DNA of 64,000 nucleotides from Naegleria gruberi. Its lineage: Eukaryota. Positions 4,400-42,818 of this stretch are shown in pieces. The translations under genes were made by a program, and so were the position numbers. The DNA is taken from the NCBI GenBank assembly GCA_000004985.1, contig GG738859.1, one strand, 5' to 3'. The notes under the pieces are model-generated. The model had not been told where the DNA came from and did no database searches. It saw only the letters and a list, made by a program, of their open reading frames with translations. Each line of letters begins with the position of its first letter. Position 1 is the first letter of the stretch.

Positions 4400-7300
4400 T
4401 TAAAGTTCTTCTTCTTCGTCCATTGGGGTATTCTTGAAAGCGTTGGCATAAGCATAGAGGCCAATCAATTTCTTGCCTATCGTACCCATCTCACAAATAG
4501 TACACAATTCACCATCATATCTTGGTAAATAAGCAGCTCCACAATATGAGCAAGCAATCTTGTCACTTCCTTGATAAATTGGAGTGTGTGAAATATTACA
4601 AACAACAAATGGATTTCTATCGTCATAATTCAATTCAATCTTGTCGGTAGGTTTGCTTTCCTTTTGTTGGGCCACATAGGCTGCTTGCTTTTGGATCTTT
4701 TCTGGAGGTCCCATCTTAAGCAATCTATTAGCAAATGTAGCTGCTGTTACAAAGTTTTCAAGTTTGAAGCAAATAGCCATGGCAGAATTCAAACCTAACA
4801 TGATGTGATTATTTCTCAATTTACATCTAGTGAAATAAGCTGCAAGTTCGGCTGCTCTCTTTGAATCAGTGGTCATAATATCCTTTCTGTCTAATTCCAT
4901 TCTGAAAGCACTGACGTATTCACAACAAGTAGATAAAGTTTCCTTGAATTCTCTTTCATCCTTCTTTGATAAGATTGGAAGGAACAATAATTGTCTCATA
5001 ATTTCACGTAACATGTCCAAACCATTCTTGATTGTATTTTGATTCGATAAGGCATTGAGAGCGTCCTTCAACTTTAATTGCAACTCAGAAAGTGTTGGCA
5101 CTGCAAGTTTAGGAAGGGTATTCTCTCTGGATCTCTCATTTTCTGATTTACCAGCTTGAAGTGCTAATGGAATACTTGGTTGACATGATGGAGAAGGCAT
5201 TAAAAGATTAGAACCAGCATAAATAGAGAGGAATAATTCTTTGAGAGGAGCAAAATTCTTGATACCAACAGCCTTTTGGAGAATTTCAATGGCAGAATCA
5301 AATGAACCAGCTGCAATGTGATTACCTGGGAATTGAGAATTGACTGGCCACATATCCAAAACGTTTCTTCCAGCATTTGGAGGAACAAAATTGCTTGATT
5401 GAGATGTGGAAATTTGAGCATCAGCAGGAATATCAATGAGATCATAGTCATCAACATTGATTTGATCCTCACCCATTTCATCCAAGTCTGATGGTGGAGG
5501 AACAGATTTCTTGCTTGTTGTGGCTTGTTCCATTCCTGGAATTTCAATACTATCACCGAATTGGTCAAATTCAAGTTCATCAATTTCACCCAAAGATTGA
5601 CCAACATCACCATAATCAATTTCTTGAGTATGTAAAAGAGGCCAGTTACCACCAGCATTGATTGGTACAGGAGGAAGGAAGAGGGAAGGCTTAAAGTTGA
5701 ATTCTGGCATCTTGAAATCTTCTGAGAGGGATTTTTTGACTTCTTCAGCAAGAGCATCCAAACCGTGATTCTTGGCAGTCATATAAGCCAATGCACTTTG
5801 GCCAACACTTTGAAGAACCTTAACTCTTTCTTCAACGTCACCAAGGAAGAGAGCATTGTGGAATCTGGACATTACATCATTTCTGCTGTTGGCAATCTTG
5901 AGCATCAATTTGAGACTTTCTTGATTACCAGTAACACTGTGCAAGAAGGAGAGTCTTTCGACATTCTTTGTTCTTTGATAAGCCTTTTCGACAGCAGAAA
6001 CATCACCTTGGTTCAAAGCTTCCAATCCCAAACTGTTCCAACATTCCTTCTTGTCCAACTTTTGGGCAACTTCAGAGGCAGTCTTGATATCACCACATTC
6101 AAGGGCAAGATTGAATTTGGTACTTTCATCTTCAACAAATTTGAGAGCAATTTCAGGATAACCCTTTTGTTGGAGGTAAGCAATAATGGAATCTCCAAGA
6201 ATCTTGGCTTCACCAATAATCTTCTTAATGTCACCAGTTCTTCCTTGAGATAAGGCAAGTTTGAATCTGTATTCAGTTGCATCAATAGTGATAACCTTGA
6301 CAGTACCTTCTCTATCAATAATTGTAACATTATTATTTTCAATATGGGCAATATAAATTGGGAGATCCAAAGTCTTGATTGTACCAAAATCACCTGATGC
6401 CAAACAATACTTCATGTGATTCAATGTAGTATAAATGAAAACACCATCCTTATCGAAGGCACCACTCTTAATACGAATGGTTTCAACAGTTGTGCAGAAA
6501 GGCTGCAAGTTACTATCACATACAACAACCAAGTGTTTTCCGAGTAAAGCAACTTTAGAGTTATCATCAGACCAAACAACAAACTTGATACCAGCTGAAG
6601 CATGGCTGGAAACAATCTTTTGTTGTTCCAAATCATACAAATGAACTCTATCATCAGTTGTAAAGATCAATCTACCAGAAACTGCTGGGAAAATTCTCTT
6701 AATTGGTCCGACAGTAATTGGAAGTTCCTTAGATCTGTCAGATTGTGTACTGTGAATGAAAATCTTTCTATCCTTTGGATCTAAAGTAGCAAACTTTTGT
6801 AAACCAACAAAAGCAGCAAAGAGGGCCTTTCCTTTTCTAATTGGGTTTCTAATTGGAACTTCATCAGTTGGTCCCTTTTTAATTTCAAACAATTCATAAG
6901 AACCACCATCATGATCTGATGTGAGAATTCCATAAGTGTTGGTTGGGTCAATACAAAGATTTCTTGTTGATCCTGACCATGATTTTCTCAAAACAGCAGC
7001 TGGAGCATCCTTGCCACCTTTAACAACTCTCAAATTCTTTTCCTTCATATACATGAGACAATTCTTGGAAGCAGTGAAAGCTGGTCTTTCTCTTTCCAAT
7101 TTGAAAACAATAAGACCACCATCATGACCAGCAGCAATAAGATTTTGAGTTGGGTGAACATCCAAAACCCAGAATCTTTCATATTCTCTCTTATAACTTC
7201 TAATGAATTGTGATTTTCCAATATCATAAAATCGGAGAGTTTTATCCTCACTGGCAGAAATAATCATATCCTTCTTTTCATGGAAAACTGCACAAGAAAC

Positions 7301-8269
7301 ATTGTGACCATGTCCTGAGAATGTATCAACAGCCCAAGCTCTTTGATCACTAACTTTCCAAGTTCTTACAGTTCTGTCATCAGAAGCAGAAACAATCATG
7401 TCAGTTTTTGGATGGAAAACAGCATAGTTTACACCTCTATCGTGTCCATCAAGAACATATTTAACCATAGCATCTCCAGAGTTAAAGAATTCTTGATTCA
7501 ATTGTGTTAACTTGAGGAATTCATCTCCTGGGCTCATTCCAACATTAGCATTCTTTTGTTTAAGTGCTGAAATATCCCAAACTCTGATAGATTGATCCAA
7601 AGAAGCGGAAACAACAAGGTCTTGTTTTGGATGGAATGATGCACTCATAACATAGTGATTATGTCCAGGTAAGACTGAAATACAAGTACGTGATTGCCAA
7701 TTCCAAATACGAATAGTTTGGTCATCAGAAGCAGAAATAATCCAAGGCTATTTTGTTAATCCACATAATATTATTTAAATTGTATCAAATTATTATCATA
7801 CAACAATAGTAAATATGTTAATAAATAAACAATAATCAAAATGTTGATAATTACTTGTTCGCGGTGGAATTCTACAGTTCTAACGTAATCGTAATGTCCT
7901 GTGAGTGTAAATAAACATCTTCTTAATTTATAATTCCAAACTTTGATTTTATAATCATCACCACCACTGACAAAAAGTGGTTGAGTACTATGGAAGTCCA
8001 ATCCTCTAACCGGTCCTATTGTATTATCATATCAACAATTAATACACACACCATAGAGCATTAAACACAATAACAATAAAACAACTTTAGATTTTTACAT
8101 TATAAAAAATCTTACCTTCATGTTCAAGATACGAGTCAATCATGGTACCCATTCTATAATCCCACAATTGAATAGCACCAGTGTGCAAGCTGGCCAAGAT
8201 CCACGATCGCTTTGGGTGGAAACTTAAACCTTTTACACGTTGGCTCTTGGTCTCGAATTTGATGATCAT
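4400..8269 (-). CDS. COPA: coatomer subunit alpha (COPA); exons 8116..8269, 7855..8015, 4400..7747
   Basis: N-terminus [23 protein letters not shown]40 repeats, and C-terminus match coatomer alpha. Introns 8016..8115 (GTAAGA..ATAG) and 7748..7854 (GTAATT..ATAG) are phase-consistent. About 1221 aa. Confidence 0.9.
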
Positions 8270-28407: not shown

Positions 28408-30807
28408 ATGTCACAAAGTGCCAACTTAAGAAAGTGTACCAGAAATGTTTCAATTTGTGGTGAATACGCGAGCGGAAAATCGACTCTCGCCCAATTACTA
28501 ATCAACCATGATTTAACAAACAATGTAAAAACACAAATTCTATTCGAAAGTACTTTCCAATCACAATTATATTCTACAAGTAAAAAATTAAATTCCTCTG
28601 ATCATCAAGAATATTCCATCAATTTATTGGATTGTCCTGGTAGGTTAGAATTAGTCTCCCAAGTCAGCACAAGTTTCAGATTGACCGATAGTTGCATAAT
28701 GTTATTCGATTCCACTTCAAAACTGGGGAAATATACAGAATTAATTACGAGACAAATTTCACAAGAGAATATTCCTCTTCTTATAATGTTAAACAAATTG
28801 GACGACTTGTTGATGGATTGCGATTTTAGTTTGGAAGAAATTTACAAATTATTATTGAAAATTATTGATTCGGTCAACTTGATGATTAGTACAAGTTGTA
28901 GTGATGTGAGTGGTGGTAAATTGAGTTTGGAAAATGTGGTGTTTGGATCTGTCAAGCAGGGATGGGCATTTACATTGAAAGATTTTGCCAAGTTTTATTC
29001 GAAACAATTAGGAATGAATCAAGAAGAATTGGTAGAGAAATTGTGGGGTGATTATTATTATGACACAGAAAATGGCCAATGGATGAATCAATCGAATGAA
29101 AATGTATTAGAAAGGGGGTTCTGTCAATTTATTTTGAAACCTATTCGAAATGTCTTATTGGCTTGTGGCGATTCACATTTTCATCAAGTAGAAGAATTGC
29201 TAAATCCTTTTGGAGTAACTCTTTCAGAATATGATGACCATTCAAAGAAAGAATTAACCAATTCAATCATCATGCAGAAATGGTTGCCAGCCAGTGATTC
29301 AATCCATGACTTGATTTGTAATAGTTTACCTTCTCCTGAAATGGCTCAACAATACAGAGCTCAAAATCTCTATTCTGGTTTACTTTCCGATAAATTTGGG
29401 TCAGCAATCAAGAATTGTGATCCAAATGGTCCTTTAATGATTCACATTTCTTCAAACAACATTGTAAATGGAAAGATTTATGCAGTGGGTAGAATATTTT
29501 CAGGATCTTTGAAATCAGACACATTAATTAGAATATTTTATTCAAAGGATGTATTTGAGGAAAAAGTGCTTGGTGGAATGGTAAATTTCAATGGTTTACT
29601 TGTTGAACCAATTGAAGAGGCAAGTTGTGAATTCAATTCGATTGTTGGACTGGTTGGAATTGAAAAGTATCTAACAAACAAGGGAGCTACCATTACTGAG
29701 AGCACAGAATTGGAAGCTAAATCATTTACTAGTGTGAATTCTCTCAATTTTCCAAAGATTAATATTTATGTGGAACCTAAAAAACAAGTTAATCTTCCTA
29801 AAATCATCAAAGGAATGGAACTGATTGCCAAATGTGATTCTTCAATTTCCCTATCTTTGGATGAAGAAACTGGAGAGAAAATACTAACAATATTGACTGA
29901 ATCTCATTTGAATTCAGTGCTAGATCAATTCCAACAACTATATCCAAATATTGAACTTGAATTGTCTGAACCAATATTAAAATATCAAGAAACTGTAACA
30001 ACTGAATCAGCCAATATAACGTTTGTGAAAACTCCAAACAAGCACAATAGATTATGGCTCACAGCTAAAACTCTCCAAGAAGAGATATCCAATTATATTG
30101 AATCAGGAAAATTACCAGAAGATTCTACGGAAAGAGCCAGAGTATTGAACGAGAGGTTTGGATGGGATCCTCTGGATGCCAGAAAGATTTGGTCATTCGG
30201 TAGAGATACTACTAGAAATATTGGAGCCAATGCAAATGCATTCGTCGATCAGACAAAAGGAGTTCAATACTTGAATGAGATTAGGGATTCGATTTGTCTT
30301 GGTTTCCATATTGCTGCACAAGAAGGTCCTTTATGCAATGAATTAATGCGAGGTGTTCGTTTCAATCTCAAAGATGTGACCCTGCATTGTGATGCTCTTC
30401 GTAGATCAACTGGGCAAATATCATCAGTAGCAAAGAGAGGTTGTTACGCCTCCATGTTAGATGCACAACCAACCCTAATGGAACCAACATTATTAATGGA
30501 ATTTAAATGTGGACAATCTCAATTGGGAACTCTCTTTTCAATTCTCAATGAAAGGAGAGGAATTGTGTTGGAACAGGAAAATTTCAAATCTTCAACCTTT
30601 GGAAAAGCTTATTTACCAGTTTCGGAATCGTTCGGAGTTGTGGACCATTTGAATAAGCTAAATATTTCTTCTCAATTCATTTTCGATCATTGGAAACCAA
30701 TTACTGCAAACTCAACTCGATTATTAGAAATTGTGAATAGAATTCGTCTCAGAAAAGGACTGCCCGAACAAGTTCCCACCTACACCGAACTAGTAGATAA
30801 ATTATAA
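28408..30807 (+). CDS. divergent eEF2-family paralogue lacking the G3 catalytic His and the diphthamide His
   Basis: Strong eEF2 blocks (WAFTLKDFAKFY...KLWGDYYYD, GPLMIHISS...YAVGRIFSG, FDHWKPI...RKGLPEQVP). G1 reads SGKST, G3 reads DCPGR and G4 reads NKLD. ATG at 28408. Confidence 0.8.
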   Translation: MSQSANLRKCTRNVSICGEYASGKSTLAQLLINHDLTNNVKTQILFESTFQSQLYSTSKKLNSSDHQEYSINLLDCPGRLELVSQVSTSFRLTDSCIMLFDSTSKLGKYTELITRQISQENIPLLIMLNKLDDLLMDCDFSLEEIYKLLLKIIDSVNLMISTSCSDVSGGKLSLENVVFGSVKQGWAFTLKDFAKFYSKQLGMNQEELVEKLWGDYYYDTENGQWMNQSNENVLERGFCQFILKPIRNVLLACGDSHFHQVEELLNPFGVTLSEYDDHSKKELTNSIIMQKWLPASDSIHDLICNSLPSPEMAQQYRAQNLYSGLLSDKFGSAIKNCDPNGPLMIHISSNNIVNGKIYAVGRIFSGSLKSDTLIRIFYSKDVFEEKVLGGMVNFNGLLVEPIEEASCEFNSIVGLVGIEKYLTNKGATITESTELEAKSFTSVNSLNFPKINIYVEPKKQVNLPKIIKGMELIAKCDSSISLSLDEETGEKILTILTESHLNSVLDQFQQLYPNIELELSEPILKYQETVTTESANITFVKTPNKHNRLWLTAKTLQEEISNYIESGKLPEDSTERARVLNERFGWDPLDARKIWSFGRDTTRNIGANANAFVDQTKGVQYLNEIRDSICLGFHIAAQEGPLCNELMRGVRFNLKDVTLHCDALRRSTGQISSVAKRGCYASMLDAQPTLMEPTLLMEFKCGQSQLGTLFSILNERRGIVLEQENFKSSTFGKAYLPVSESFGVVDHLNKLNISSQFIFDHWKPITANSTRLLEIVNRIRLRKGLPEQVPTYTELVDKL

Positions 30808-30935
30808 CTCTGCCTACAGTTTCATCACAGGAATCTAGGAATGGACAAAGCCACAACAAACAAGAAACACTTTTTTATTCACTAAGACCAAATATTAAGG
30901 ATAATTAAACTGTGAATTGTCTCACTAATCATGCG

Positions 30936-33791: not shown

Positions 33792-34299
33792 TTTTTTTAA
33801 GGGTTTTTGTTGTTGAATGTGTTTGTTGAGTGGATGAGAGTGTTTGGAGAATTTTAAATGCTAATTGGAGTTTTATCAATTTAAATTCTACTGTAAAGAG
33901 GTGTGGGTGTATTAAATGGAGAGGGGTTATGTCAGGTAAATGTTGAAAAGGCCTCAAACACGTGTTTTGAATAGTATATTAAGAGAGTGTTTGCTTAATA
34001 TTGTCCATGAAAGTTCACTTTATGAATTCACAAATTTTTACAATGTTAACCATTTCACAATATCAATGGAAGCCTTATCAAAGTAAAAACTTGAAAAACA
34101 ACCATTTTCCATAACAACATTATTGTTGTAAACTATTTAAATAAATGCAAATAAAATCAAAAAAAAATGCAAACTTCAACTGATAACCCCACACAAATCA
34201 ATCAACTCTCAGAACAATTTCTGTTTGCACTTTCTCTTGAAGAATCCAATCCACATCAAATGTTTTCCATGGTGCTAGCCTAAGAGTGGATGTAGTTGG

Positions 34300-34352
34300 T
34301 GGTGTAGCCGGTAGCCGGTTACAGCCGGATGGTAGTGCGGGTAGTCGGAAGC
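34300..34352. repeat. left subterminal repeat array (GTAGCCGG / CAGCCGG / GTAGTCGG units)
   Basis: ggtgtagccggtagccggttacagccggatggtagtgcgggtagtcgg lies directly inside the left TIR. Confidence 0.5.
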
Positions 34353-34400
34353 TGTTGAATACACCTTCAAAGCCAAAAATTAATAATAAAAGTTCTATTT

Positions 34401-36341
34401 TTAAAATTTAACTTTATGAAAATTCATGAAAAACGAGTATTGGTTGAACATTTCTTTGCCAGCAATATTATGAATCAAACATTTACCAATTATTTGATTT
34501 AGTGCAACATAGCCTGTTGTTACATGAATGTTTGAATCAATTAATCTATATCCAATAATTGGATGAACCGAAGAGAGACACTTTTTGATGTTGGTGAAAT
34601 ATACTTTTTGCTCTTTAACCTCAACAAATTGACCAACAAGTAAGGAACCATCCTTTGCCTTAAATAAAATAAATTCTTTGTTTTGTACAATTGGAATCCA
34701 TTTCTTGTTTTCAGATTGATTTCTTACCCAAGGATAATTGATGTTAATTTGTCTTTGAAGTTTTTCAAAATTCGCTCCTCGTTGTTCTAAATTTTTGTGA
34801 TTGGAAGAGTCATTAAATTGTTTGAAAACTTTGTGTTTCAATTCAAAAAGCAATGCCCAGAAGAACCTGGCATTTCCCCACTTCAAACAATCTTCAAAAA
34901 TATGAGAATTCCAATGAAAATTAGGATTTGTAAAATTACCATTACCATATAGGGAAATGACTTGTTTCCTGAAATTGAAATGTTTCAATTTTGCAATTTC
35001 AATGTTTGAAGGTGAAACCAAATCTTGAATCAAAGAAAGTACGTATTCTACGTGATTTGACCAACATATAATATGTTTCTTCTTCAAACTGAATGAAACA
35101 TCACAGTGATTCTTATTATTAATAAGAAAATCATAGATAATTGGGCAACTAAAAACCACGAATTCCAAAAAATGATCTGCTGAACAATCATTGTAATCTT
35201 TTGCAATCATTTTCAAAGGTTTACCATGATTGTTTGTATACTTGTCCATAACAGACTGAAAATCACTTAAAATGTTGGTGTAATTGAAATATTTGAAAAA
35301 TTTTTTAAGGTGTCTCCTTAAATCACCTTGAATAGAACCATGCATTAATTCAACAGTTGAATTTTCAAAAATATCACAATCCTTAATTTGTAAAAACGGA
35401 CACTTCATTTGAGTATTGTTACTTTGTCGAACTTTTTCTTTTACCTGTTTGGATTTTTTGGACTTGGAATCAATCTGCATATCTTTGATTTGAATATCAG
35501 CGACTGTAATAAACTTGTAGCCATTACATGAGGTACCAATTGATAATTTTTGTTGCATTTCAATTGCTTCAGTAACAGTTCTTAAAGGATAGACTAAAGG
35601 TGTTGAAATGTCATTAGGACATTTACAATAATCTCCTTTTGGGCATTTACATTTAGAACATGTATAGCTTTCAAGAAATAATGATAGCCATCTTTGTACA
35701 GAATCCCAAATCCAAGGACCTATTAGAATTCGAATCTTTTCAATTGAATCAGTGTAAGAGTTATAAACATCAATTGATTTTCCATTAATTTCATTCAACT
35801 CTTCAACTAGTTTTGTTGCTAATTTGAATTGGGAAATATTTGTTTTTGAATTTCCTAGTAATGAAATTGATTCCATATTCGAAGTAAGAAAGCTTCGATT
35901 AAAATTCAATAAGGTGAAATATAATCCTGCTGTTTTGTCTGTACCTGTTCTATGTTTTCTAAATTCATCAATATAATACATAATGACAATTGGTGTTTCG
36001 TCTGGTGAACATTTCTTTTTCAATTCTTGAAATCCTTTTGATGCGTATGGTTCATAATTGAATAATGGTTCTTTTGTTAAATCCTCTGGCTTATTACCAT
36101 TATGTATCTTTTTTGCAATAAACGGATCTGCATATAAATATTTGATACAATTTACAACACCATAGTATACATATTGGTCCTGTTCAGTATCATTTTCATC
36201 AATTATTGGTTGTTGAGTTTTGAAATATTTACATCTGGTTTGAATTTGATCGTATGAAAGACATTCTTGACCACATAATTTCAGTATTTCAGTTGTATAA
36301 TTGTATTGTTCTTTTGTAAACTGTTTGGATTTCAACATCAT
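34401..36341 (-). CDS. transposase-like protein with CxC zinc-chelating motif (CSKCKCPKGDYCKCPND); possible KDZ/EnSpm-like transposase
   Basis: 646 aa ORF inside the TIR-bounded element. The CxC cluster resembles zinc-chelating modules associated with KDZ transposases. The family assignment is an inference. Confidence 0.45.
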   Translation of the reverse strand: MMLKSKQFTKEQYNYTTEILKLCGQECLSYDQIQTRCKYFKTQQPIIDENDTEQDQYVYYGVVNCIKYLYADPFIAKKIHNGNKPEDLTKEPLFNYEPYASKGFQELKKKCSPDETPIVIMYYIDEFRKHRTGTDKTAGLYFTLLNFNRSFLTSNMESISLLGNSKTNISQFKLATKLVEELNEINGKSIDVYNSYTDSIEKIRILIGPWIWDSVQRWLSLFLESYTCSKCKCPKGDYCKCPNDISTPLVYPLRTVTEAIEMQQKLSIGTSCNGYKFITVADIQIKDMQIDSKSKKSKQVKEKVRQSNNTQMKCPFLQIKDCDIFENSTVELMHGSIQGDLRRHLKKFFKYFNYTNILSDFQSVMDKYTNNHGKPLKMIAKDYNDCSADHFLEFVVFSCPIIYDFLINNKNHCDVSFSLKKKHIICWSNHVEYVLSLIQDLVSPSNIEIAKLKHFNFRKQVISLYGNGNFTNPNFHWNSHIFEDCLKWGNARFFWALLFELKHKVFKQFNDSSNHKNLEQRGANFEKLQRQININYPWVRNQSENKKWIPIVQNKEFILFKAKDGSLLVGQFVEVKEQKVYFTNIKKCLSSVHPIIGYRLIDSNIHVTTGYVALNQIIGKCLIHNIAGKEMFNQYSFFMNFHKVKF

Positions 36342-36393: not shown

Positions 36394-36705
36394 TCAGTGT
36401 TCTTTTGTAATATGTTTCAACAACGTTTCAGATTTGACACAACTATAATCACATAAACAACATCCAAGTTTTTCCTTAGTAAAATTTTTACACTCAGAGT
36501 TTTCACAGTTACATTTAATTTGAATCTTGAATTTTGCACTTGAAATTGGTTGGTAAAATACTGTGTGTAAAGATTTCTTGCAAGAATCACAGCGTCTTTC
36601 AAAATAGATACCTTGTTCCTTGTTATTTTGTAAAGACATTTTTTTTCGTCTAAAAACTGGCTTTCGACTGAAAATTCGAATCAAAAAAAACACAATAAAA
36701 AACAC
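36394..36705 (-). CDS. C2H2-type zinc-finger ORF just upstream of the transposase-like ORF; possibly its 5' exon
   Basis: CDSCKKSLH...CLCDYSCVKSETLLKHITKEH, same strand, 50 bp upstream of the 34401..36341 ORF. Confidence 0.3.
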   Translation of the reverse strand: MFFIVFFLIRIFSRKPVFRRKKMSLQNNKEQGIYFERRCDSCKKSLHTVFYQPISSAKFKIQIKCNCENSECKNFTKEKLGCCLCDYSCVKSETLLKHITKEH

Positions 36706-38077: not shown

Positions 38078-39181
38078 TTGGCCACTGTTAAGAATTATCC
38101 ACAAGCATTCAACATCATTTCGGAATGTTATCGAAATCAAGTGGGTGTTCAATATAATGAAGATAAGGTTTTCGAATATGCCATGATGGGATCAGAAAGG
38201 GGTGATTTGATTTCCACATTCTATGTTGGAAATTGTTATAATTTTGGAGTGGGAAGGGAGGTTAATGTAGAACTAGCTATGGAGTGGTATGAAAAGGCAG
38301 CTAATGCTGGTCATGGAATGTCATGCTTTCTTGTGGCAGATAAATGTCATCAGGAAAAGGATTTTGATAATGCAATGAAATGGTATTCGAAAGGAGCAGA
38401 ATTGGGATTGGATTTGTGTTTTCATAGATTAGGATACATGATTGAAAGAGGAGAAGGTTGTGAACGTGATCTAGGAAAGGCATTTGAATGGTTTCATAAA
38501 GCTGCCAATTGTGGAATACCTGTATCCATGTACAGTTTGGGAGTTTGTTACGAAAGAGGAATTGGATGTGAGATTAATGAAAAGAAATCAATGGAGTGGT
38601 ATGTAAAGGCTGCCAGGAAGGGTAATCAACAAGCCAATGCCAAAGTAACATTGAGATGTACAACTGGAATTCGAGGAGATTATGATTTCAAACTTGCATA
38701 CGAATTGTTTTTATTGGATGCAACAGTTAAGAAGACTTTCATTGAATTCTGCTCTTGTTTTGACATGCCCATCTCCAAATTCTACATTGCACAGGAGTTA
38801 TATTATGAAAATGCAAGAAATGATTCTTACAATTCTTTGGAAATTATTGAAATGCTAGAATCAACTCAACAATTATATCAAAGCCAGAATTTGCTAGGGC
38901 TTATTTATTTGGAAGGAAAGATTGTAGAGCAGAATTTTGATTGTGCTTTCAAATTAATTGAGAAAGCAGCAGAATCAAAGAAGGGAAAATGTCTCTTTGA
39001 TTTGGCCATCATGTACCTGTATGGTTATGGTTGTAAAAAGGATTCACTCGAAGCCAGATATCGATTAAAACAATTGGCAATAGAAGAATATCAACCAGCT
39101 ATTGATTTACTTGAAAGGAGTTTCCACTCTGATTTATTGAAGAATCGGCAATATTCTGATTTGATTATTGTTATGAAATGA
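38078..39181 (+). CDS. Sel1-like repeat (SLR/TPR-like) protein
   Basis: Repeated motifs of the form G.G...D...A..WY.KAA..G. Confidence 0.7.
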   Translation: MATVKNYPQAFNIISECYRNQVGVQYNEDKVFEYAMMGSERGDLISTFYVGNCYNFGVGREVNVELAMEWYEKAANAGHGMSCFLVADKCHQEKDFDNAMKWYSKGAELGLDLCFHRLGYMIERGEGCERDLGKAFEWFHKAANCGIPVSMYSLGVCYERGIGCEINEKKSMEWYVKAARKGNQQANAKVTLRCTTGIRGDYDFKLAYELFLLDATVKKTFIEFCSCFDMPISKFYIAQELYYENARNDSYNSLEIIEMLESTQQLYQSQNLLGLIYLEGKIVEQNFDCAFKLIEKAAESKKGKCLFDLAIMYLYGYGCKKDSLEARYRLKQLAIEEYQPAIDLLERSFHSDLLKNRQYSDLIIVMK

Positions 39182-39415
39182 TACTTTTTTTTATTAAGGA
39201 ATTAGTTATATATTCAACATGGTGTTTGTTTCATAACTGAAATATTTTCAAGGTATTTAGAAAGATAACAATTTTACAATTTATTGAAAACTTCTTACAG
39301 AACTGGTTTCATTACTGTAATGACATTTATCACATTTCTGAGAAATAGGGCTTATGCAATAAATCCGATTTAATCTGCAATTCAATAGCATTCATCATCC
39401 ATCATTAAAAAAAAT

Positions 39416-39678
39416 TTAAACGTTTATTAATCGTATGAACCCGACGGGTTCGTCTTGATGATATTACGAATATTAAATAATAAATTCTTTCTTGTTGGGA
39501 TTGCTTTGTTCATTTCTTGTAACTCTGTGGACACAAATACTTGGCTTGAACACCCTATGCTGGAACCCCGGGTAGTATAGGGTACGGTGACTTAACCCGA
39601 CGTAAGTATTGCGGCAACACACTGTGGTCTCAGGGTCAACAGTGTAGTTACTGGGTGGTACGACATTTTTTTTGAGAC
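39416..39678 (+). mobile_element. SINE-like or Pol III-type structured ncRNA insertion flanked by a 17 bp direct repeat
   Basis: Perfect direct repeat ccatcattaaaaaaaat at 39399..39415 and 39679..39695. The 263 bp GC-rich insert has hairpins (ACACTGT...ACAGTGT, ACCCTAT...ATAGGGT) and ends in T8. Confidence 0.45.
39666..39673 (+). terminator. T8 run, candidate RNA polymerase III terminator at the 3' end of the SINE-like insert
   Basis: cgacattttttttgag. Confidence 0.35.
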
Positions 39679-39693
39679 CCATCATTAAAAAAA

Positions 39694-40740
39694 ATGCAAA
39701 AATCAACACTTTTAACCGCCACATGTCTGTTGATGTGTGTATTACTGTCAATTTTGACAGCCTTCTCTGATGCCTCCTTGAGTGGAACATCATCTGAAGC
39801 TTACGCACTTGCTCACGCATCAGCCAGTAAGAATGAAGTTAAAATTGCCTCTTTCAATATTCAAATTTTTGGTTCTTCCAAAATGGAAAAGAAGAATGTT
39901 TTGGCTGTCATTTTGAAAATTCTCTCCAGATATGATTTAGTATTAATTCAAGAAGTTCGTGATTCTTCCGATACTGCCTTTGCTAATCTTGTAAAAGAAT
40001 TGTCAAATTACAATAAGAATGTCAAGTATGGCTCAGCAATTAGTGAAAGACTTGGAAGAAGTAATTCAAAGGAACAATATGGATTTATTTACAATACTGA
40101 TAAGGTAAAAATGATCAAGACTGTTCAATTTAAGGATACAAAAGGATGGTTTGAAAGACCGCCTTTTGCATTTGTTTTTGAATTGAATGCTGCCAAGTTG
40201 AAAGGTCAACAATTTGCAATTCTTGGATGTCATATTAAACCAGGTGATGTTGTCAATGAATTGAATCATCTTGTTGAAGTTTATGATTCATTCAAGAGTG
40301 AACCATTCTATAAGAATATTATTTTGACTGGTGATTTCAATGCTGATTGTTCTTACTTGTCTGATACTGAAATGAAGAAACTCAAATTGTCCACTGATGC
40401 TAGATTCAAGTGGTTGATTGATATGGACTCAACTGTTGCTGATTCTGAATGTTCATATGATAGATATATTGTTCCAGTTGAACTTTCAGCAAAGAAGCTT
40501 TCCAGTGGAGCTCTCTATGAACTCGGTCAAGCTACCGTTTATAGATATGATAAGGATATGAAGATTACTGATGAAGAATTGGTTGAAGATGTCAGTGATC
40601 ACTATCCAATCGAAATGACAATTACTAGCTCTCAAAACATTGGTCTTTCTTCCAAGACTTTGGCTGATTTGGTCTTTGATGATTTGGTTAAGGAAGAAGG
40701 TGAAGACGATTGGAGAAGAATAAACATGAATCCATACTAA
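39694..40740 (+). CDS. secreted DNase I-family deoxyribonuclease
   Basis: Signal peptide, then FNIQIFG, DLVLIQEVRD, LGR.S.KEQYGFIY, GDFNADCSY and SDHYPIE, all hallmark DNase I blocks. Confidence 0.8.
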   Translation: MQKSTLLTATCLLMCVLLSILTAFSDASLSGTSSEAYALAHASASKNEVKIASFNIQIFGSSKMEKKNVLAVILKILSRYDLVLIQEVRDSSDTAFANLVKELSNYNKNVKYGSAISERLGRSNSKEQYGFIYNTDKVKMIKTVQFKDTKGWFERPPFAFVFELNAAKLKGQQFAILGCHIKPGDVVNELNHLVEVYDSFKSEPFYKNIILTGDFNADCSYLSDTEMKKLKLSTDARFKWLIDMDSTVADSECSYDRYIVPVELSAKKLSSGALYELGQATVYRYDKDMKITDEELVEDVSDHYPIEMTITSSQNIGLSSKTLADLVFDDLVKEEGEDDWRRINMNPY

Positions 40741-40800
40741 CTGAATTGTTAATCAATTCGATTGGATTCGAAAATGTTTATTATACACGAATTAGTTTTA

Positions 40801-41400
40801 TTAATAATCAGTTAAATCTGTTAGAATTGAATCATTATCCAATTCGTCATCTGAATCGTCGTCTTGATTCATTTGTGTTTTACCCAATCTAGATGAAGAC
40901 CTAGTAGATGTATTATTAGCGGAATTGAATGAAACATTATTCATTGATTGAGATAATGGTTGTGAAAATGGATTGGAATAATTGAATGTACCAGTTTGAT
41001 AATATGAATTATTGACTCTACAATTAATATTGAAAATTATACTTGGTTGTTGATGTGCTTGTCCATTCCACAGAGATGAAGAACTCATTTCATTAGAGGA
41101 AGTTGAGGATGTGTTACTACTATTGGAGAATGAGGAAGATTGCACAGAGGATGAATCATTAGAATAATGAGGAACATTACCAGTTCCAGAATTAAAGTAC
41201 ACATGAGCCTCTCTCAGTTCTGGACTCCTCTTTACTTGTTTAGTTTGACTCTTTTCAATACCATCATATTGATTCTCACCTCTCTTTCTCTTATTATTGA
41301 ATGAGGAGGAGTCTTGATCTGTGTCCTTACTTTTGGTCATTTGATTGGTTGTTTTTTTTGATGAAATTCTTAATGAAATTGCTCTCATTAAAAAGTGCAT
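40801..41400 (-). CDS. S/N-rich low-complexity protein, unknown function
   Basis: 199 aa ORF with a basic N-terminus, an S/N-rich middle and an acidic C-terminus. Confidence 0.35.
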   Translation of the reverse strand: MHFLMRAISLRISSKKTTNQMTKSKDTDQDSSSFNNKRKRGENQYDGIEKSQTKQVKRSPELREAHVYFNSGTGNVPHYSNDSSSVQSSSFSNSSNTSSTSSNEMSSSSLWNGQAHQQPSIIFNINCRVNNSYYQTGTFNYSNPFSQPLSQSMNNVSFNSANNTSTRSSSRLGKTQMNQDDDSDDELDNDSILTDLTDY

Positions 41401-41675
41401 TGTGTGAAATGTCTTAAAATAACCTTACATCACCAATGAAGATTTACATCAATATCGACCATTGAACAACATCCATACAATTCTAAGATGATTGATTCAA
41501 ATTTATATTCAATACAATCTCCACACAGTTCAAGTTCTTGATTTCCCATTACCACTTGTTTCTCTCAAATTCATTTAAAAGTAATCTTTGGAAGTTTATG
41601 GTCGCATGTTCAATTCTTCCATTTATTCGCTAATTTTTTATTCAATTAAAAATTTCAAAAAAAATGTGAAAAAAA

Positions 41676-42818
41676 ATGTCCTCATCTGTCGGCGCTACTC
41701 TTGAAGCTATCAAATATACTCGTGGATCTTTGGAAATTCTTGACCAATTGCTCATTCCGAAGTCATTTATCTATGAAGTTGTTGATACAACTGAAAAGGC
41801 TTTCCATGCCATTAGAGATATGAAAGTTAGAGGTGCTCCAGCTATTGCCATTGTTGCCGTTTTGACCTTGGCTGTTGAAGCTAACCAACTTTTGCAAAGT
41901 AATGATGCTCTCTTGGCTGATGCTTCTGCTATTGCTAAATTATTTAATGAAAAATTGGATAGATTGGCTGAAAGTAGACCAACCGCTGTCAATTTGTTCC
42001 AAGCTGTTGGTGATTTTAAGAATAAGATTGCTCAATCACTTGAAACTAACAAGACTGGTACCGAAATTGTTCAACTCATCATTGATGAAGCTGAAGCCTT
42101 GATGAATAGAGATATTGAAGAAAATGCTAAAATTAGTGAATGTGGTAGTGATCATATCATTTCAACCAATCCATCGAGCACTACTTTGAAAGTTTTGACT
42201 CACTGTAATACTGGTGCTTTGGCTACTATGAAGTATGGTACCGCATTGGGTGTTATTCGTTTCTTGCAAAAGAAGAATGTTTTGGAACATGCCTTCTGTA
42301 CTGAAACTAGACCATACAATCAAGGTGCTAGACTCACTGCTTTCGAATTGGTCTATGAAAAGATTCCATCTACATTGATTTGTGATTCTGCTGTTAGTTA
42401 CTTGTTCAAGACTAAGAAGATTGATGCTATCATTGTTGGTGCTGATAGAGTTTGTAATAATGGTGATACTGCCAACAAGATTGGTACTTATCATATTGCT
42501 GTTAGTGCTAAACATCACGGAATTCCATTCTATGTTGCTGCTCCATTCACATCTATTGATTTGACTCTTGCTTCTGGTGATTTGATTACCATTGAAGAAA
42601 GAAGTGAAAAGGAAATTACTCACTATAGAAATAATGATGAACGTGCTGTTGTTGAAAATATTGGTGTTTGGAATCCAGGTTTTGATGTCACAACTGCTGA
42701 TTTAATTTCTGGTTTCTTTACTGATATTGGTGTTTTCACTCCATTGACCTGTGCCACTACTGGTAAGAAGTATTACGATTTAAAGACTCAACAAGCTGAA
42801 AAGTTGAAACAACAATAA
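41676..42818 (+). CDS. MRI1: methylthioribose-1-phosphate isomerase (MTNA/MRI1; eIF2B-like family)
   Basis: The full 380 aa length shows the eIF2B-related/MTNA pattern (RGAPAIAIVA..., GADRV.NGDTANKIGTY). Confidence 0.85.
   Translation: MSSSVGATLEAIKYTRGSLEILDQLLIPKSFIYEVVDTTEKAFHAIRDMKVRGAPAIAIVAVLTLAVEANQLLQSNDALLADASAIAKLFNEKLDRLAESRPTAVNLFQAVGDFKNKIAQSLETNKTGTEIVQLIIDEAEALMNRDIEENAKISECGSDHIISTNPSSTTLKVLTHCNTGALATMKYGTALGVIRFLQKKNVLEHAFCTETRPYNQGARLTAFELVYEKIPSTLICDSAVSYLFKTKKIDAIIVGADRVCNNGDTANKIGTYHIAVSAKHHGIPFYVAAPFTSIDLTLASGDLITIEERSEKEITHYRNNDERAVVENIGVWNPGFDVTTADLISGFFTDIGVFTPLTCATTGKKYYDLKTQQAEKLKQQ

Follow-up and report, generated by a model that had tools for sequence, protein, structure and literature searches.

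Naegleria gruberi is an amoeboflagellate, and the window analysed here is a 64,000 nt stretch of its nuclear DNA (contig GG738859.1, assembly GCA_000004985.1) with a GC content of 33.5 %. It includes an intact gene for a deoxyribonuclease I (DNase I)-like protein (39694-40740, plus strand), upstream of which lies a 263 bp segment (39416-39678), referred to below as the insert, that is bounded by two copies of the 17-mer CCATCATTAAAAAAAAT. The gene product, 348 aa with a hydrophobic N-terminus and an Exo_endo_phos domain (Pfam PF03372), is 100 % identical to the NCBI entry "predicted protein [Naegleria gruberi]", has homologues named deoxyribonuclease-1-like and is full length when compared to its orthologues. 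The copies of the 17-mer are found at 39399-39415 and 39679-39695 (both plus strand) and are exact, and the second overlaps the start codon of the DNase I-like gene (ATG, 39694-39696), all of which agrees with the original prediction made for this DNA. The working leader of the gene is the downstream copy, which contributes the first two bases of the start codon (A and T) and consists of TCATT and then A8, the last A of which opens the ATG. The base following the upstream copy is a T and not a G, and no ATG is formed there.

The bases that flank the two copies differ on both sides, hence the exact repeat is 17 nt, and it can be extended to 22 nt only with 2 mismatches. There is no other match to the 17-mer in the window at up to 2 mismatches. 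Exact direct repeats of at least 17 nt with a spacing of 30-1000 nt occur five times in the window; this pair is the sole intergenic one, and the remaining four lie within internally repetitive coding sequence. When the window was simulated using a third-order Markov model (n=200), 2.5 % of the simulated sequences contained any exact repeat of this length and spacing, and shuffled sequences gave 0.24 matches to the 17-mer per window with 2 mismatches allowed. The 17 bp repeat is, thus, more than chance. Just upstream of the first copy, and overlapping it, is a CATCATCCATCATT tract (39393-39406) that on the minus strand includes two C-box-like UGAUGA motifs; its weak matches to small nucleolar RNA (snoRNA) families in Rfam (E 0.6-5.5) are most likely due to chance.

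The leader was compared with those of the orthologues in N. lovaniensis (L001) and N. fowleri (L002), of an N. fowleri paralogue (L003/L004), of the Willaertia magna gene (L005) and of a metagenomic homologue (L006). In N. lovaniensis, gtcaagCATCATCTTTAAAAAAATG lies directly at the start codon, as does gtcaagtgTCATCGTTAAAAAAAATGCACAAAAAC in the closest N. fowleri gene, and removal of the insert and one copy of the repeat from the N. gruberi sequence reconstructs the empty site ttcatcatcCATCATTAAAAAAAATGCAAAAATC. Both orthologues include one copy of a CATCAT..TT-A(7-8)-ATG leader, abutting the ATG and without the insert, and in N. lovaniensis the spacer to the upstream gene is only approximately 100 nt. 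The CATCAT leader was not found in the N. fowleri paralogue, in Willaertia magna or in the metagenomic homologue, and it is therefore specific to the orthologues, with a single copy abutting the ATG as the ancestral state. Hence, with the leader present once and without the insert in both N. lovaniensis and N. fowleri, it is highly probable that a lineage-specific insertion, together with a 17 bp target-site duplication, is present in N. gruberi, though the orthologues are distant (55-56 % protein identity) and their neighbourhoods differ, and this is not an empty site at the level of strains. The original prediction had proposed an insertion of this kind in the DNase I leader and had looked to related strains for the orthologous empty site; the single leader in two species, albeit distant ones, bears it out. 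Outside the two copies, neither the DNA upstream of the first nor that downstream of the second has any residual similarity to the insert, making a decayed tandem duplication unlikely, and a search of the remainder of the window (blastn, word size 7) also gave no similarity that such a duplication could be traced to.

Gene order around the DNase I-like gene is rearranged between the species. In N. gruberi it is flanked by a Sel1-repeat gene and by an MtnA-like gene (window 38078-42818), and the N. lovaniensis orthologue has a GST-like gene and a DUF547 gene as its neighbours. The DUF547 gene is downstream in N. fowleri, where the gene upstream has no Pfam match and is followed by a GST-like remnant; a Sel1 gene is found a few kb downstream in this species.

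The insert is not uniform in composition. Though it was noted previously to be more GC-rich than its surroundings, and overall it is (41 % versus 25 % for the upstream intergenic DNA), the high GC content is limited to the 148 nt at its 3′ end (39531-39678; 48 % GC, in the top 0.3 % of 148 nt windows) and the 115 nt at its 5′ end (39416-39530) are only 32 % GC. The stable hairpins and the repeated 9-mer in the same description can be located, namely ACCCTAT/ATAGGGT at 39552-39583, ACACTGT/ACAGTGT at 39619-39645 and AACCCGACG at 39438 and 39594, but both hairpins are unexceptional relative to shuffled sequences and the insert folds no better than they do. Compared to dinucleotide shuffles, neither the whole insert (z = -0.28 and -0.58 on the two strands) nor its GC-rich part (z = +0.08 and +0.67) has any excess stability. 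A further hairpin, GAACCC-GAC-GGGTTC with a 6 bp stem, is at 39437-39451, approximately 20 nt from the left end of the insert, and appears in both the minimum free energy and the centroid folds. The insert was also said to end in a T8 run; this run is at 39666-39673 and is followed by GAGAC before the duplication begins.

The identity suggested for the insert, a short interspersed element (SINE) or a retroposed small RNA, is not supported. ARAGORN found no tRNA in the window, and no Rfam family reached its gathering score in the window or an E value below 0.6 in 39200-39900, such that the search for 7SL, tRNA-derived or 5S-derived SINEs that had been recommended yields no relationship of the insert to any of them. 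A structured non-coding RNA (ncRNA) gene, such as one for a small nuclear RNA or a snoRNA, is likewise not indicated by Rfam or by the folding scores, which range from z -0.58 to +0.67. H/ACA and C/D snoRNA, U1-like and Sm-site readings were considered by eye and dropped as each relied on a single short motif with the other defining boxes absent. Internal promoter elements of RNA polymerase III (Pol III) were sought as an A box (TRGCNNAGTGG) and a B box (GGTTCGANNCC) about 30-60 nt apart. There is no match to the B box in the insert at up to 2 mismatches, and the one A-box match (39520-39530, 2 mismatches) is at chance level, as the window contains 146 such matches versus 131 expected. The insert does have the flanking duplication of a SINE, a perfect 17 bp direct repeat, and no A-rich or simple-repeat tail abuts it, as the plus strand ends in CATTTTTTTTGAGAC and the minus strand in AATAAACGTTTAAA, with three A only.

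No second copy of the insert was detected in the 64 kb window (blastn, word size 7) or in 18 kb from the orthologous loci, and the insert, with no relative found, is an orphan. Plasmid and phage collections gave only chance 30 nt matches, and a bacterial, plasmid or phage origin was set aside; a viral origin was also rejected, as pattern and translated scans of IMG/VR were negative. Two scans of JGI metagenomes for environmental relatives were negative. A scan for promoters and terminators of the bacterial type, which is unsuited to a eukaryote, found nothing. In the literature searched, we found no paper that describes a Naegleria SINE or the 263 bp element. The transposon content of N. gruberi has been given as 0.28 % (preprint 10.64898/2026.06.24.734286) and its total repeat content as 5.1 % (PMC6125883), and most repeats are unclassified, and DNA transposons as well as retrotransposons are present (PMC12344493).

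The T8 run takes on a different aspect when read on the minus strand, where 39664-39675 is a TC-A8-TG module followed by TCG (Ser), of which the CA and T8 on the plus strand had been taken to resemble a Pol III terminator. Sixteen of the 27 A or T runs of at least 8 nt in the window (59 %) are gene starts formed by an A-run and an ATG, and an ORF of at least 100 codons begins at 21 of the 33 sites with six or more A followed by TG. Of the 16 long A-runs followed by TG, six have TC before them, and the second codon is Ser (TCN) in eight of 24 likely starts. Gene starts with this signature are found across the window, e.g. at 1823(-), 3541(+), 21924(-), 33791(-), 41676(+) and 61099(-), often with TC or TCAT before the run. 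This suggests that the leaders of N. gruberi genes are very short and A-rich and include a TCA resembling an initiator, and the TC(A) or TCAT before the A-run would be that initiator-like part. The form TC-A8-TG-TCG is the commonest form of A-run gene start in the window. As the T8 run has this form on the minus strand and most long A/T runs are gene starts, the run is less likely to be a Pol III terminator. More generally, long A/T runs in this DNA are mostly gene-start leaders and a T-run needs to be checked on the other strand before a Pol III terminator is called.

The minus strand of the insert opens GTC-TC-AAAAAAAATG-TCG, with the TC-A8 beginning 5 nt into the insert and the ATG following the A-run. 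CATTTTTTTT (39664-39673) is a perfect 10 nt inverted repeat of the AAAAAAAATG at the start of the DNase I-like gene (39687-39696), 13 nt away. The two ATGs face apart with 27 nt between them. Other divergent starts in the window are approximately 190-380 nt apart, and the atypical spacing fits arrival by insertion and not a native arrangement. From the minus-strand ATG, a short ORF of 24 codons (MSYHPVTTLLTLRPQCVAAILTSG; 39592-39666, minus strand) runs to a TAA, which is the single internal stop in 78 codons, and the frame is open after it until TAA TAA at 39424-39429. A second minus-strand frame (39473-39676) has 67 open codons across the GC-rich part (LKKNVVPP...KKEFII) and stops at a TAA at 39473-39475. 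At the far end, the minus strand finishes with TAATAAACGTTTAA (...GAT TAA TAA ACG TTT AAA), in which an AATAAA (39423-39428, minus strand) overlaps the double stop TAATAA and is separated by 7 nt (CGTTTAA) from the left end of the insert, the TAATAAA lying 8 nt from the boundary. Of the 30 long ORFs in the window, 11 have an AATAAA no more than 110 nt from the stop, approximately 2.7 times the background, and in four it overlaps the stop. The outline of the minus strand is, thus, a start module, approximately 135 nt with a coding-like GC content, and then an AT-rich tail that includes the stem-loop at 39437-39451.

The protein searches were negative. For the 67-codon frame no protein sharing words was found among 5.8 billion proteins, the N. 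gruberi proteome included, and the other five frames, joined as one query, gave no score at E ≤10 among the same proteins. A phmmer scan of 1.84 billion representatives, with the 67-codon frame as query, returned 0 matches, and Pfam was negative. The codon-usage scores of the minus-strand frames are near zero, compared to +18.8±8.9 for 67-codon stretches that are truly coding, and this is an ambiguous value, neither like that of coding sequence nor clearly non-coding.

The explanation that we favour, tentatively and at somewhat less than even odds, is that an orphan short transcription unit was inserted antisense to the DNase I-like gene at a staggered cut, probably via RNA. In the N. gruberi lineage, 263 bp of unrelated DNA would have entered the very short leader of the gene at cuts staggered by 17 bp, and filling-in of the overhangs would have duplicated CCATCATTAAAAAAAAT. 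These 17 bp hold the conserved proximal leader in full, comprising an initiator-like TCATT, the A-run and the first two bases of the ATG. With the downstream copy in place, the start codon has its native surroundings back and the gene stays intact, and the upstream copy, in which the AT is followed by T, would be a harmless decoy; the gene would have survived because the target-site duplication regenerates its leader and start-codon context. The insert itself may be a copy of a short unit of the type transcribed by RNA polymerase II, either an orphan mini-gene or a non-coding transcript, that is degenerate or was never coding, and it would be oriented antisense to the DNase I-like gene. From the outline of the minus strand and the length of the duplication, we infer this orientation and source and an RNA intermediate, the mechanism being probably a form of target-primed reverse transcription. 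The duplications generated by known eukaryotic DDE transposase superfamilies are 2-11 bp long, and an RNA-mediated event is favoured because 17 bp is too long for any known cut-and-paste transposase.

Several points count against this explanation. A poly(A) or A-rich tail is missing next to the duplication in either orientation, the minus strand having only AAA, even though the perfect duplication implies a young event. The cut sites are unlike the TTTT/AA preference of L1 elements. Neither a parent gene nor a relative of any of the six frames was found in the 5.8 billion proteins or the 1.84 billion representatives, though an unannotated small parent gene is possible. The minus-strand ATG frame includes a premature stop and the codon-usage scores of the minus-strand frames are near zero. 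In addition, a single copy cannot show mobility, and the likeness to the outline of a transcript rests on short motifs. At its simplest, the insert is most likely an ordinary, single and young insertion, no source of which was identified in the collections searched.

Among known systems, the insert is close in some respects to products of retroposition by long interspersed elements (LINEs), i.e. SINEs and processed retrocopies. The insert is short (263 bp), its target is A/T-rich and the 17 bp duplication is perfect; duplications made in target-primed reverse transcription are typically 5-20 bp or more. The ends of its minus strand fit the outline of a transcript from gene-start module to TAATAAA. 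Unlike such products, it lacks a tail of poly(A), of A-rich sequence or of simple repeats and has neither a Pol III head nor A and B boxes, no parent gene or partner LINE was identified for it, and the cut sites are not L1-like. Taken as a processed retrocopy, the insert would run on the minus strand from 5 nt ahead of TC-A8-ATG-TCG to 8 nt past TAATAAA; in place of a poly(A) before the downstream duplication there is AAA, and the protein libraries did not contain a parent gene. The 3′ tails of SINEs and LINEs of the stringent type (partners of L2, CR1 and RTE elements) consist of a stem-loop plus a short tail without poly(A), and in the minus orientation the insert may resemble these, with a 6 bp stem-loop (39437-39451) approximately 20 nt from its 3′ end and no poly(A). 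Miniature inverted-repeat transposable elements (MITEs) and other non-autonomous DNA transposons are also small and non-coding, with direct duplications at their ends, and also lie beside genes. No terminal inverted repeats joining the two ends of the insert were found and 17 bp is outside the 2-11 bp range, and on both counts a MITE or DNA transposon was rejected. Helitron-type elements are distinguished by the lack of a duplication, an A/T insertion point, TC at the 5′ end, CTRR at the 3′ end and a subterminal hairpin. Here, a 17 bp duplication is present and the ends are TTAAAC...GAGAC (GTCTC...TTTAAA on the other strand), not TC and CTRR, and this candidate was also discarded.

Four other accounts of the locus were weighed against the favoured insertion of an antisense transcription unit. 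The most serious, though still unlikely, is capture of DNA with no mobile element involved, in which a 263 bp genomic fragment, possibly the 5′ end of an unannotated gene, was joined in at a staggered break or was copied by a template switch that resumed 17 bp upstream. It would account for a perfect duplication around ends that have neither inverted repeats nor an A-tail and for an insert that is single-copy in the window and the orthologous loci, and a random fragment would sometimes bring a gene-start module with it, since 16 per 128 kb of strand corresponds to approximately 0.07 expected in a fragment of this size. Yet both ends fit the outline of a transcript, one lying 5 nt ahead of TC-A8-ATG and the other 8 nt past TAATAAA, which is not expected of a random fragment; no donor gene is seen in the annotated proteome in any frame, and fill-in duplications of 17 bp are uncommon at sites of captured fragments. 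We consider it rather improbable that the insert is a SINE or a retroposed Pol III small RNA in the plus orientation with the T8 run as terminator. The size of 263 bp, the long target-site duplication, the GC-rich segment with hairpins and the T8 near the 3′ end are what would be expected, lineage-specific SINEs with unknown heads exist, and the genome could hold a wider family of which this is the one member seen. Opposed to this are the failure to match tRNA, 5S, 7SL or any other Rfam family, the missing B box and the chance-level A box, the five non-T bases between T8 and the duplication with no A-rich tail, folding that is the same as that of shuffles, the position of the GC-rich part at the 3′ end and not at the head, the first 115 nt being AT-rich, and the lack of a copy in 64 kb or the searched collections. 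Moreover, most A/T runs of at least 8 nt in this genome are sense or antisense gene-start leaders and this one shows the full TC-A8-TG-TCG form, and the transposon content reported for N. gruberi is low.

A third account needs no insertion, the 263 bp being a small native gene on the minus strand, or a gene for an ncRNA, between the Sel1-repeat and DNase I-like genes, with the 17-mer doubled or retained as a core promoter or leader. The start module on the minus strand is of normal form, leaders can double locally, as one does at 41654-41680 (see below), and the 17-mer contains a motif that is conserved between species. We nevertheless regard a native gene as improbable given that its ATG would be 27 nt from that of its neighbour where other divergent pairs are approximately 190-380 nt apart, that the ORF is only 24 codons and has no protein relative even in other Naegleria, and that the orthologous loci lack such a unit, only approximately 100 nt being available upstream in N. 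lovaniensis. Furthermore, 17 of 17 identical bases around unrelated sequence are the footprint of one event and not of convergence. Finally, two A-run leaders might share 17 bases by coincidence (the motif CCATCATT-A8), and 9-10 of these bases do belong to a TT-A8-T run of a type that is common at gene starts here. This is hardly credible when only 2.5 % of simulated 64 kb windows hold an exact repeat of at least 17 nt within 1 kb, when shuffles yield 0.24 matches per window even with 2 mismatches, and when no gene starts at the upstream copy, which has a T and not a G after it.

If a staggered-cut insertion is the correct reading, the locus offers a clean case of a young insertion into the genome of a transposon-poor protist and bears on how well very short leaders tolerate insertions, and an insertion activity that uses staggered cuts, and possibly reverse transcriptase, would have been recent in N. 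gruberi. Its importance would be greater only if related elements form a family across the genome; at present it counts as a single structural mutation. That the insert is one copy of an undescribed family of short Naegleria retroposons, with no tRNA, 7SL or 5S head and with its own initiator and A-run gene-start module, landing in the A-run leaders of genes, is very doubtful. Such a family could create head-to-head promoters or leader introns (GTAAGTAT ... T8-GAG).

The possibility of a leader intron arises from GTAAGTAT (39602-39609, plus strand), which resembles a consensus 5′ splice site and with T8-GAG (39666-39676) would delimit a candidate intron of 75 nt (39602-39676) in a long 5′ untranslated region; based on these two motifs, such an intron is speculative. 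Likely introns in the window are 42-95 nt long with GTAAGT or GTATGT donors and mostly YAG or AAG ends, and the candidate, with its GAG acceptor and GC-rich body, is unlike them. The median intron in N. lovaniensis is 80 bp (PMC6125883). Introner-type elements share with the insert a position in a transcribed leader, a target-site duplication and signals like splice sites, here GTATGA at 39434, GTAAGTAT at 39602 and T8-GAG at 39666-39676. They differ in that there is no GT at the left boundary of the insert and hence the whole element is not excisable, in that GAG is a poor acceptor relative to those of the likely introns in the window, and in that there is no sign of a family or of splicing. 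A literature search found no paper linking introners to Naegleria genomes.

Elsewhere in the window, the leader of the methylthioribose-1-phosphate-isomerase-like gene (41676-42818) is doubled (TTTCAAAAAAAATGTGAAAAAAAATGTCC, 41654-41680), with a one-codon upstream ATG in the first copy. A 34 nt inverted match (5507-5540 versus 30834-30867, 88 % identity, 25 kb apart) is, by a rough estimate, too good for chance; one arm (5507-5540) is inside an ORF for 1082 aa with WD40 repeats (4400-7648, minus strand) and the second arm falls in the short gap separating two convergent ORFs, whose ends are at 30807 and 30936. At 34167-34380, a 38-codon ORF opens from a TC-A9-TG start, and after it comes GC-rich DNA that holds GTAGCCGGTAGCCGGTTACAGCCGG-type repeats, is among the GC-richest spots in the window and adjoins the 3′ end of a 646 aa ORF (34401-36341, minus strand) that has no Pfam match. 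An adjacent 103 aa ORF (36394-36705, minus strand) gave only faint matches to C2H2 zinc fingers, and these two ORFs may be an orphan gene pair or one derived from a mobile element.

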